Source of the DNA: a virus
Taxonomy: Duplodnaviria; Caudoviricetes
DNA length: 64,000 bases
Reading direction: 5' to 3' (one strand)
Virus record (IMG/VR): IMGVR_UViG_3300021256_000011
Coordinates: 8,789 to 72,788 of that record
Shown: piece by piece, positions 2,246-6,540 of the stretch
How positions within the stretch are numbered: position 1 is the first letter of the stretch
How the letters are laid out: each line of letters starts with the position of its first letter
Notes under the pieces: model-generated
Database searches by the model: none
What the model was told of the DNA's origin: nothing
The model's input: the letters and a program-made list of their open reading frames with translations, nothing else
Program-made: the position numbers and the translations under genes

Positions 2246-2630
2246 TCAGGTATTCGTTAATAATAGTTTTAAATTGATCCAGACTGCGGCACAAACAATA
2301 CTTGTAGCCTTGCTGTTCGAGCCGCGACTGAAAAGCCTTCTGCTCGGCGCTCTGAACTCCCGTTTCGGTCTTATACTCGATAGCGAGACCAAAGTAGCCG
2401 CGGCGTGCAATGAAGAGAAAAGTATCTGGTGCACCTGCGACTAATCCTAATGCCTTTCGCATCGCTCCATCAAGTTTGCTACTTCTGTTCCCCTCGTTCG
2501 GAATATGAATGTATAAACCACGAGTTTCCGGGTAATTATTCCATAGAAACTCAACACAGCTCGCCTGTATTCTCGCCTCGGGCTGGGTATGCTTACGTTT
2601 CTTCGGTTGTGGATTTATCTCTATTATCAT
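2238..2630 (-). CDS. VRR-NUC domain nuclease
   Basis: EARIQ...HIPNEG...GLVAGAPD...LAIEYKTETGVQSAEQKAFQ, PD-(D/E)xK motif. Confidence 0.9.
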   Translation of the reverse strand: MIIEINPQPKKRKHTQPEARIQASCVEFLWNNYPETRGLYIHIPNEGNRSSKLDGAMRKALGLVAGAPDTFLFIARRGYFGLAIEYKTETGVQSAEQKAFQSRLEQQGYKYCLCRSLDQFKTIINEYLNA

Positions 2631-3342
2631 GTTGAAATATTAAATCAAAAACAGCATCCTTGTCTTCTGGGTATTTCCACACAAAACCTCTAGCGGTTTT
2701 TCTGCCACCAACACAACATCTCCGTATAAGATTATGGTTCACCCCGACAACTCTTTCTGCTTCTCGCGCAGAATACCATATCTGCACCAACTCCATATCC
2801 TTTGTGTACTGCAAGACAGGAATACATCGAAGTCTAATAGCGTCTTCTGTTTTGTTCCACTCTGTCAATCTGTCCTTTTGTTCCTGAGACAAATGCTTTC
2901 CATACCAGTGGTTCTTTTCTCCCCTTTGTGAATCTCCAATTTTTTTACGAACTTCAGCCGATGGAGACTTCCCAAACATAGGATTTTTCTCGCCGAGTTT
3001 AGAACGCCGTATAGCCTCGATAGTTAATGGGTTGTTTTGGTTTTCCTTCGCCGTACACCACCGTAAATTGCTCGCCCTATTATCAGTCCTAATGCCGTTT
3101 ATATGGTCTATAAACGGCTTGCCGTCTGGATTCGGACAAAAGGCTTCTGCGACGAGTTGGTGAACGAGTCTCTTCTTGAATATGCCGTTATAATATAAGT
3201 GCACACTAACATATCCCTGCTTCGTAATCCATCCATTAAGAATTCGATTCCCCTTTCGAGGATTCCTGACATGTCCATAGTCGCTAACCTCGTACAATCC
3301 ATCCCAGTCTTTTACCGGCTTCCATTCTTCAATTTGTTCCAT
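2593..3342 (-). CDS. NUMOD4-HNH homing endonuclease with NUMOD3/NUMOD1 motifs
   Basis: EEWKPVKDWDGLYEVSDYGHV (NUMOD4); IDHINGIRTDNRASNLRWCT (HNH); GEKNPMFGK/GEKNHWYGK (NUMOD3); C-terminal NUMOD1-like segment. Start set at MEQ. Confidence 0.92.
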   Translation of the reverse strand: MEQIEEWKPVKDWDGLYEVSDYGHVRNPRKGNRILNGWITKQGYVSVHLYYNGIFKKRLVHQLVAEAFCPNPDGKPFIDHINGIRTDNRASNLRWCTAKENQNNPLTIEAIRRSKLGEKNPMFGKSPSAEVRKKIGDSQRGEKNHWYGKHLSQEQKDRLTEWNKTEDAIRLRCIPVLQYTKDMELVQIWYSAREAERVVGVNHNLIRRCCVGGRKTARGFVWKYPEDKDAVFDLIFQHDNRDKSTTEET

Positions 3343-3455
3343 TGTAAAAATCGAAGTCCCGAGGTTCAAATAGTGATGCGAGCACTATCCTACTAATCGG
3401 GACTCTTAAATTTCTATCCACCTTCTCGCATAAGGCGTTTAACAATGCAAATATA
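3343..3455 (-). promoter_or_regulatory. TAnnTTTG promoter plus structured 5' leader (copy B)
   Basis: TATATTTG at 3455-3448; ATGCGAG/CTCGCAT and AGTCCCGA/TCGGGACT pairings; ATAGAAATTTA. Confidence 0.6.
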
Positions 3456-5609: not shown

Positions 5610-6311
5610 CTAAAACAAAGACAGTTGGTATGATGTGTTCCCTATATTAAAAACAACAGGTATCGGCTCTAGATCAAAATACTTTTCACAAATGTCAACA
5701 ATGTGCTCACACAGTTGGGGTGGGTATGCCGAACGAAGGCTTTTGTCCGAGATGCCCTGAAGACCAGTTTTCGACCCTCTTGGCGCAGGCTGATGACACG
5801 GGTCGCCGTTCTTGCATGGCGGCAAGAATTCTGGACACGGGTGATTGGTAAAAATATCTGTCGCTTTCCTGTATGGGAATCCGTACTTGCAGTATGTTAT
5901 AAGATACCGAGGAATTCCATGCATATAATCCATCTTTCTAAGACCGCCCATTGGATTCTCAATAAAGAAAAACCTGGGGCTCAAATCTCGAATTAGTTCA
6001 AGGGTATGCCGGTTCACTAGGTCTGCCTTTGCTGCTTTTTCGGTCTTTGGATCAAGAGAACCTGTTACAGGATTCTTCTTTCTGTGATGACCGATTGCAG
6101 CGACGCTAAATGTCGTGCAATCGTTACCACTCCAAATGATATCTGGCCTCCCAAACTCACGCAACACCATCTCTGGTGTAAGTTCCATAATATCTATATG
6201 CAGCGATGAGGGGAATTTCTTCTCCCAATCTACCGTATAGCACTCGTGCCCTCTGGACCGGAAGGCGTTGCTTATGCATTCAGTACCACTGAATAATTCT
6301 AAGATTTTCAT
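5610..6311 (-). CDS. DNA cytosine-5 methyltransferase-like protein
   Basis: KILELFSG (motif I), WSGNDCTTFS (motif IV-like), IENP (motif VI). Start moved to MKILE because the upstream extension overlaps the tRNA-like element. Confidence 0.8.
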   Translation of the reverse strand: MKILELFSGTECISNAFRSRGHECYTVDWEKKFPSSLHIDIMELTPEMVLREFGRPDIIWSGNDCTTFSVAAIGHHRKKNPVTGSLDPKTEKAAKADLVNRHTLELIRDLSPRFFFIENPMGGLRKMDYMHGIPRYLITYCKYGFPYRKATDIFTNHPCPEFLPPCKNGDPCHQPAPRGSKTGLQGISDKSLRSAYPPQLCEHIVDICEKYFDLEPIPVVFNIGNTSYQLSLF

Positions 6312-6326
6312 TCTATAAAATACTTG

Positions 6327-6392
6327 CGGATGGGGGCGGGCTCGAACCGCCGACTGTGGCTTTTGCCTCTCTACCAACTGAGTTACCCATCC
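6327..6392 (-). tRNA. tRNA-like element with truncated anticodon arm (no anticodon assignable)
   Basis: GGATGGG/CCCATCC acceptor; TAACTCAGTTGGTAGAG D arm; GGCGG-TTCGAGC-CCGCC T arm; anticodon arm reduced to GGC-AAAA-GCC. Confidence 0.75.
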
Positions 6393-6396
6393 AAAA

Positions 6397-6540
6397 ATCG
6401 GTGCGTGACATCCTCACTTTGGCTCTACGATGTCAGCTTCACGGATAATCCCAAATTTTCTTCTCCGCTACTCTTATTCACTGCCTTTCCGCACCGATGC
6501 GCCGCCGTTAGTGCACTCCTTGGGAATTACCCCGTGCCCG
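6397..6540 (-). ncRNA. Candidate structured ncRNA immediately upstream of the tRNA-like element
   Basis: ATCGGTGCG/CGCACCGAT closing stem, inner TGACATC/GATGTCA stem, further hairpins; intergenic. Confidence 0.4.

Follow-up and report, generated by a model that had tools for sequence, protein, structure and literature searches.

What does a tRNA-shaped sequence that cannot decode do directly in front of a methylase gene? The question is posed by a rumen phage whose 72,788-bp viral record carries direct terminal repeats. We analysed bases 8789-72788 of that record, a stretch of 64,000 nt referred to here as the window. A first-pass annotation of its letters had described a minus-strand tRNA-like element with an almost deleted anticodon arm, and had proposed that it could act as a processing or stability element for the mRNA that follows. 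We asked whether the element is kept as an RNA fold, how it is placed among related phages, and which role best accounts for both.

A tRNA body with a stub at the anticodon position

Re-reading the minus strand across 6327-6392 gave a base-by-base parse identical to the earlier one, including its perfect acceptor and T stems. The parts of the element are:

6327..6392, minus strand: tRNA-like element, 66 nt, recognized by RF00005 (36.7 bits), fold, homologues and covariation
6392-6386 paired with 6334-6328, minus strand: acceptor stem, 7/7 Watson-Crick
6383-6368, minus strand: D arm
6358..6367, minus strand: stub hairpin of 3 bp and a 4-nt loop, sitting at the anticodon-arm position
6357-6352, minus strand: linker, 6 nt
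6351-6335, minus strand: T arm, stem 5/5 Watson-Crick, loop TTCGAGC
6327, minus strand: discriminator G

The D arm has three pairs and an A10/A25 mismatch, and its loop holds A14 and a GG (G18G19). The bases of the tertiary contacts are present (U8, A14, the GG and G15-C48), with A9 following U8. The 5-bp anticodon stem and the 7-nt loop with U33 and the anticodon are absent, and the stub GGC-AAAA-GCC replaces the 17-nt arm. No anticodon is possible because there is only a 4-nt loop on a 3-bp stem. The earlier statement that the element cannot decode therefore stands, and it extends to the relatives described below, in which a canonical anticodon arm occurs in 0 of 17 members at this site.

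Scanned locally with Rfam, the element scored 36.7 bits against RF00005 (E 8.8e-6; gathering score 29) in an alignment that sets 11 nt of the element where the model has the 17-nt anticodon arm. At E values up to 10, tRNA was the only Rfam family matched. The element went undetected by ARAGORN and by a whole-window Rfam scan with default filters. Its minimum-free-energy fold is the cloverleaf (-26.7 kcal/mol, z -2.9), which is retained when the element is folded within a 246-nt context.

Genomic setting and probable co-transcription

The element lies between a conserved leader and the methylase gene:

6500..6536, minus strand: conserved leader motif, 37 nt, common to 23 viral loci
6397..6498, minus strand: long hairpin module with a conserved 9-bp closing stem, a variable interior and a T-run end
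6393..6397, minus strand: five consecutive T immediately preceding G1, a T run being seen in nearly all relatives
6312..6326, minus strand: A/U-rich spacer, 15 nt, from the discriminator to the methylase ATG
5610..6311, minus strand: DNA methyltransferase gene, 233 aa, directly downstream (phrog_757, E 1e-35)

The spacer begins with CAA, so CCA is not encoded after the element. Both the 15-nt distance given by the first-pass annotation, with the ATG at 6311, and its naming of the downstream gene as a methylase agree with our analysis; the latter rests on the phrog_757 match, and against Pfam PF00145 the protein reaches only 21 bits, just under the cut-off.

A nucleotide search of the phage collection returned no match. 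We found relatives through the 112-aa upstream protein (12 related viral loci) and through the conserved 18-nt core of the leader motif (23 loci). In these rumen-phage contigs, a tRNA-like gene follows the leader motif and directly precedes the next ORF, often with one or two long hairpins ending in T runs ahead of it. Where downstream DNA was available, 14 of 15 members have the ATG of an ORF of at least 60 aa 4-17 nt past the discriminator. The usual spacer before that ATG is CAA..TATG, and in most relatives the spacer measures 4-6 nt. The downstream gene itself varies by phage and may be this methylase, a Dam-like methylase, a third methylase type, a helicase, a small ORF or another gene.

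The element is on the same strand as the methylase, with no consensus promoter between them. No sigma-70-like site was found near it on the minus strand, and no Bacteroidota-type TAnnTTTG (-7) box on that strand from 6796 to 5190. Because no promoter fits between the two, we infer that the element is transcribed as part of the downstream gene's pre-mRNA. A Bacteroidota host is likely because, judged by helicase, Parabacteroides and Cellulophaga phages are the nearest cultured relatives, and because the phage makes modest use of Shine-Dalgarno sequences. Among cultured relatives, the closest helicase is that of Parabacteroides phages (42% identity), which carry no such element upstream of the helicase.

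Upstream, the T run occurs in relatives regardless of the sequence farther up, and the hairpin module is optional. The module is terminator-like in look; a simple terminator scan did not call it because its loop is too long. Hairpin and T run together could limit read-through into the element, which counts against the processing interpretation given below. Equivalents of the module are found in L095, L098, L104, L106, L110, L113, L114 and L116, with at least four unrelated interiors of 45-110 nt, and some relatives have a second module type, AGGG.GCG...CGC.CCCTTTTT. These modules share a design with the tRNA-like element, namely constant handles around a swappable interior.

Within the leader motif is a small hairpin in which the third pair varies among relatives (G-C, C-G or T-A). 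Upstream of the motif in many of them (L096, L097, L099, L101, L109 and others) is a GGGGCT..GCCGCCG..AGCCCC segment that begins at the stop codon of the preceding ORF and could form an H-type pseudoknot with the motif's CGGCGGC; the segment is missing in the window. We rejected a programmed -1 frameshift with a pseudoknot at the end of the upstream ORF: the A run is limited to five residues, the frame that closes with the TAA of the motif stays open for no longer than 10-30 codons, and the window is without the 5' half of the putative pseudoknot.

Selection on the fold

Across the relatives we distinguished 17 versions at the same site, alike in their acceptor, D and T arms. An arm-by-arm manual parse of these site members found the acceptor stem paired in 91/91 cells, with pair 4 appearing as U-A, U-G or C-G and pair 7 as G-C, G-U or A-U. 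T stems were paired in 84/85 cells and came in four different sequences. The D stem was paired in 59/64 cells, with G-C, C-G and A-U/G-U variants. U8-A14 is retained in all in-register members, and at the tertiary 15-48 pair 10 members have G-C and 4 have A-T.

We also built a covariance model from five short members and re-aligned 25 matches. In this alignment, which includes a few tRNA-like genes of other sites, the acceptor and T helices were 98.5% paired and double-sided changes were seen at 12/12 pairs; none of 500 column shuffles reached any of five measures, and as a control, sliding the partners by 1-3 columns dropped pairing to 43-59%. Because the model alignment takes in genes of other sites and wrongly puts long inserts into the D loop, the D-stem and tertiary-pair counts are those of the manual parse. 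The first-pass annotation had staked its interpretation on conservation of the stems in relatives; in our alignments they are conserved, with compensatory changes.

These substitutions bear on whether the element is a functionless relic of a tRNA gene, decaying after deletion of its arm. Its inability to decode, the absence of an ARAGORN call and the A/A mismatch in the D stem are what a decaying gene might display. Decay would strike all stems, however, and the 17 diverged copies keep their acceptor and T stems almost without exception, in a fixed position before ORF starts. We therefore find a pseudogene hardly credible. The sequence comparison indicates that the tRNA-shaped fold is maintained and the anticodon arm is not, and excludes decay because the stems stay paired through compensatory changes. 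By the same evidence, we regard the element as a conserved, functional, non-decoding RNA of tRNA shape.

Covariation also weighs on a second alternative, in which the element acts mainly as DNA, a conserved patch for recombinational swapping of the gene cassettes that follow. There are traces of such exchange. The window and L086 are 95% similar through the leader up to a break about 24 nt into the element, past which they differ in both arm and downstream gene; in L097, a small inserted ORF is followed, 218 nt downstream of the element, by an incomplete second copy of an element's 3' end; and downstream genes are highly variable. Yet a recombination patch predicts sequence identity rather than paired double changes, and the stems and the tertiary pair covary, which only selection on the RNA fold explains. 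We consider this alternative very unlikely; the conservation of the element probably led to recombination there, rather than the reverse.

The L097 copy (reverse strand) consists of the 3' strand of the T stem, the acceptor's 3' strand, G and CAAT. A 66-aa ORF precedes it and the helicase ATG follows directly; L084 has a degenerate version. We read it as the footprint of a cassette insertion by recombination within the element. We looked beyond the methylase cassette for a direct repeat, of the integration type, of the element's 3' end and found none in the window; a clear one occurs only in L097.

A candidate processing signal

Our leading interpretation, to which we give about an even chance, is that the element is a phage counterpart of plant mitochondrial t-elements, excised by host RNase P and RNase Z so as to set the 5' end of the mRNA. 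Bacterial RNase P and RNase Z recognize the acceptor/T stack, the D/T elbow, a U at -1 and a non-CCA trailer. The element keeps a 12-bp acceptor/T stack, the D/T elbow and a U before position 1, and it has no CCA, so that handling like a pre-tRNA is expected. Under this interpretation, the tRNA-maturation enzymes of the host would handle the element like a pre-tRNA. Cleavage by RNase P at the 5' end would take off the leader hairpins that lie upstream, and a second cut, made by RNase Z or through a different 3' pathway, would fall after the discriminator. The products would be a 66-nt RNA and an mRNA whose leader measures 15 nt in this phage and 4-6 nt in most of its relatives. Among 44 early- and middle-region ORFs we found no RNase, RNA ligase, synthetase or CCA-adding enzyme, so the work would have to fall to host enzymes. 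The anticodon arm would be irrelevant to recognition by RNase P and RNase Z and would be free to drift, shrink or be swapped, cleavage itself presumably being what selection maintains.

We count in favour of processing that the arm is unconstrained in length and sequence. We also count in its favour that relatives lacking the element (L085/L104 and L111) have, after the T run, a promoter-like TTTG...TAnnTTTG and a different cassette; that the element is missing from some relatives counts against it. The cassette that replaces the element in L085/L104 and L111 is of the HNH-NUMOD type. The window has an HNH-NUMOD homing endonuclease gene of its own at 2593-3369 (minus strand), with a Bacteroidota-type promoter (TTTG, 19 nt, TATATTTG) at 3455 (minus strand).

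Two features go beyond what processing predicts. The minimal requirements of RNase P and RNase Z are limited to the elbow and the acceptor/T-arm stack. That the D stem, U8-A14 and the 15-48 pair are so strictly kept goes beyond these requirements, and the element may have further partners. These may include a CCA-adding enzyme, modification enzymes or a synthetase, and hence a role for the released RNA. The second feature, long inserts that are shared across scaffolds with compensatory changes, is not predicted by a purely unconstrained arm.

Variation of the arm and the question of cargo

Between the D and T arms, the middle segment is 16 nt long in the window and reaches 71 nt in other versions, and the arm spans 10 to about 65 nt. 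L116 is the one other stub member, with an independent stem of 4-5 bp and a short A-rich loop; L114 has a 17-nt arm with a Val-like loop and a broken stem; the remaining members carry inserts of 18-65 nt. The description 'almost deleted' thus fits the stub of the window but fails as a rule, as relatives more often carry longer, structured inserts. Several relatives' elements score 39-51 bits as tRNA in Rfam, and ARAGORN isotype calls are mutually inconsistent across the family. A metagenome scan for the truncated-arm subtype returned only the contig of L116 itself.

Several known kinds of RNA were considered for the longer versions and rejected. Rfam scans of 15 loci gave only tRNA hits and revealed no large ornate RNA of the ROOL or GOLLD type in the relatives' extra 400-1000 nt. 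There was no Rfam match to a known ribozyme or intron in the inserts, and, judged by eye, excising an insert never restores a canonical anticodon loop.

The inserts suggest a further alternative, in which the tRNA body is a natural chassis that expresses, trims and stabilizes variable RNA cargos, the copy in the window being empty or minimal. The same inserts of the 60-nt class occur on different scaffolds (L089 and L109; L107 and a second site in L103), two of them with compensatory changes, and one insert type is confined to tRNA-like scaffolds at two sites in the same phages. Set against this, the arm of the window is a bare tetraloop hairpin and that of L116 is similar, so the element is kept without cargo; no insert matches an Rfam family; and shuffled sequence folds as stably as many of the predicted arms. 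As an account of the element in the window we think cargo carriage quite unlikely. Judging from the inserts, it stays alive for the relatives, but the window copy has no cargo.

A structured insert of about 55 nt was seen at L103:9654-9757, L212:1444-1512, L213:437-509 and L107:4056-4175 (all minus strand), with a conserved core on two tRNA-like scaffolds at two genomic sites in one phage group. It shows the compensatory change CAAG/CTTG to CGAG/CTCG, and the insert was not found elsewhere in the viral collection or in Rfam.

Other tRNA-like genes and a possible role in trans

The element is solitary, 8 kb from the other tRNA-like genes of the phage:

14098-14180, minus strand: second tRNA-model hit, 47.4 bits, normal body, 17-nt loop at the anticodon position
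14449-14527, minus strand: third tRNA-model hit, 41.7 bits, normal body, 12-13-nt loop at the anticodon position

L101:1589-1668 is a homologue of the 14098-14180 gene with a 14-nt loop, and it keeps the stem by compensatory change (CATGG/CCATG versus CATCC/GGATG). Directly after the 14098-14180 gene, at about 14064, is a Bacteroidota-type promoter (TTTG, 19 nt, TAACTTTG).

In a side search we used a deliberately narrow pattern, one common D-arm sequence with a T arm too near to leave room for a normal anticodon arm. The pattern returned 74 viral loci, and inclusion called for a minimum of 6/7 pairs in the acceptor and 4/5 in the T stem, and for a D-to-T linker of 9-19 nt. We obtained 43 distinct arm-less tRNA-like genes in unrelated viral contigs (L121-L194), none of them called by ARAGORN (0/43). 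CCA is encoded in 3/43. Canonical tRNAs on the same strand lie within 1 kb of 17/43, in arrays, and the other 26/43 are solitary. Only 1/43 is within 20 nt of an ORF start, so tight coupling to an ORF is a feature of the methylase-site family.

Examples of the arm-less genes are L126:6685-6742, L131:5091-5158, L145:1387-1454 and L138:8238-8304. Their D arms are canonical and the anticodon arm is missing or a stub; several types recur in 3-9 contigs. At L118:3997-4066, from a different habitat, a 5-bp stem is capped by a GCGA tetraloop. This side result, which may matter more widely, points to an entire class of viral tRNA mimics that now goes unannotated.

Such genes bring in the possibility that the arm-less RNA, once released, trimmed by the host and CCA-tailed, works as a tRNA mimic in trans. 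Its target could be a host factor that recognizes the acceptor or elbow, such as a tRNA-targeting toxin or a defence enzyme, which it would occupy as a decoy or sponge; alternatively, it could be a chargeable, non-decoding carrier of an amino acid. The element keeps an entire tRNA core with its tertiary pairs, beyond the minimum for RNase P and RNase Z; the anticodon arms of the phage's tRNA-like genes are unusable in all three; and arm-less tRNA-like genes are common in unrelated phages, mostly away from ORF starts. The tRNA region of phage T4 likewise yields two small RNAs with roles unknown, RNAC and RNAD (PMC3014915). A mimic would leave the constant abutment of the element on an ORF start in this family unexplained, however, and no partner protein is encoded nearby. 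Nor does the acceptor stem occur in any cellular tRNA in about 185,000 species genomes, so the element is not a mimic of one particular host tRNA, and a 3-70 pair of A-U means that the alanine identity mark is missing. We consider a trans-acting role possible for the released RNA but, as the main explanation, somewhat unlikely; it is compatible with cis processing, and the two are not mutually exclusive.

A copy of a host tRNA was rejected as an origin of the element, there being no cellular tRNA with an identical acceptor stem. The first 15 nt of the element recur in tRNAs for Lys, Arg, Val and Phe from unrelated phyla; being common to four isotypes, they do not allow an isotype to be assigned.

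The widest synthesis we can offer is that a lineage of Bacteroidota-type rumen phages uses the tRNA body as a general RNA chassis. Mimics with no arm or with a cargo, excised from early mRNAs and CCA-tailed by host tRNA enzymes, would act in trans, perhaps by titrating a host factor that senses tRNAs or attacks them at the elbow or acceptor end. Anti-restriction methylase mRNAs would get their 5' ends from that cut, and the 43 arm-less genes would belong to the same widespread class. In this combined form we hold the proposal to be unlikely.

Comparison with known systems

To our knowledge, it is mainly in organelles that the cutting of transcripts at tRNA shapes by RNase P and RNase Z has been documented, and the tRNA punctuation model of mitochondrial transcripts is the broader parallel to a processing signal of this kind. 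The closest likeness is with the t-elements of plant mitochondria, non-canonical tRNA-like structures with a conserved T arm that direct the RNase P and RNase Z cuts forming mRNA ends (PMC1920247). The T arm in the window fits GGTTCRANYCC, the motif used to find t-elements (Forner et al. 2007, PMC1920247). Both kinds of element reside in mRNA precursors (by inference here), adjoin coding regions and have no decoding role. They differ in that ours is in a phage and not an organelle, and in that the full core, with D arm and tertiary pairs, is kept by covariation. The phage element also lies 4-17 nt from a start codon and has a hypervariable arm, often with long inserts. Plant t-elements direct the RNase P and RNase Z cuts and, once excised, gain non-encoded C and A residues (PMC1920247); cleavage in the phage is predicted. 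The processing or stability role proposed by the first-pass annotation is thus plausible and partly supported: the anatomy is compatible with a phage variant of tRNA-like processing signals, and the function would follow from that likeness.

A full-text literature search did not find anticodon-arm-less tRNA-like leaders described in phages, and a large survey of structured virus RNAs mentions tRNA-like candidates in general terms only (PMC10690425). If our leading interpretation is right, phages punctuate early transcripts with tRNA shapes that are cut by host RNase P and RNase Z, which would explain the blanks left by tRNA-finders and annotation pipelines in these intergenic regions. The element would also offer a compact test system, short at 66 nt, with a single reporter gene downstream and arm variants supplied by nature.

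Like tmRNA, the element combines an open acceptor stem and a T arm with a replaced anticodon arm. Unlike the element, tmRNA has no D stem, and it carries a G3-U70 alanine mark and a tag reading frame; here the D stem is present, position 3-70 is A-U in 13/13 in-register members, the 66-nt element has no tag ORF and no room for one, and ARAGORN made no tmRNA call. RNAC and RNAD, the small RNAs of the T4 tRNA region (Uzan and Miller 2010, PMC3014915), are, compared by description only, likewise phage small RNAs tied to tRNA genes and non-decoding. Those lie inside a tRNA cluster, whereas the element stands alone in an mRNA leader.

YrlA, reportedly described by Chen et al. in 2014, is said to be a bacterial and phage Y RNA with a tRNA-like module and no anticodon loop, and so also mimics a tRNA body without that loop. 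YrlA is permuted: its acceptor end is closed by a loop, its termini lie at the position of the anticodon stem, and it has a Ro-binding helix. In the phage element the acceptor end is open, the stub is closed, and Rfam gives no match other than tRNA.

In engineered tRNA scaffolds and tRNA-gRNA arrays, an RNA replaces the anticodon arm and the tRNA body provides processing by RNase P and RNase Z as well as stability. That is the architecture of the long-insert relatives, with the differences that the scaffolds are man-made and the phage elements natural, and that the copy in the window carries no insert. If our interpretation is correct, these phage elements would be a natural counterpart to the engineered tRNA scaffold.
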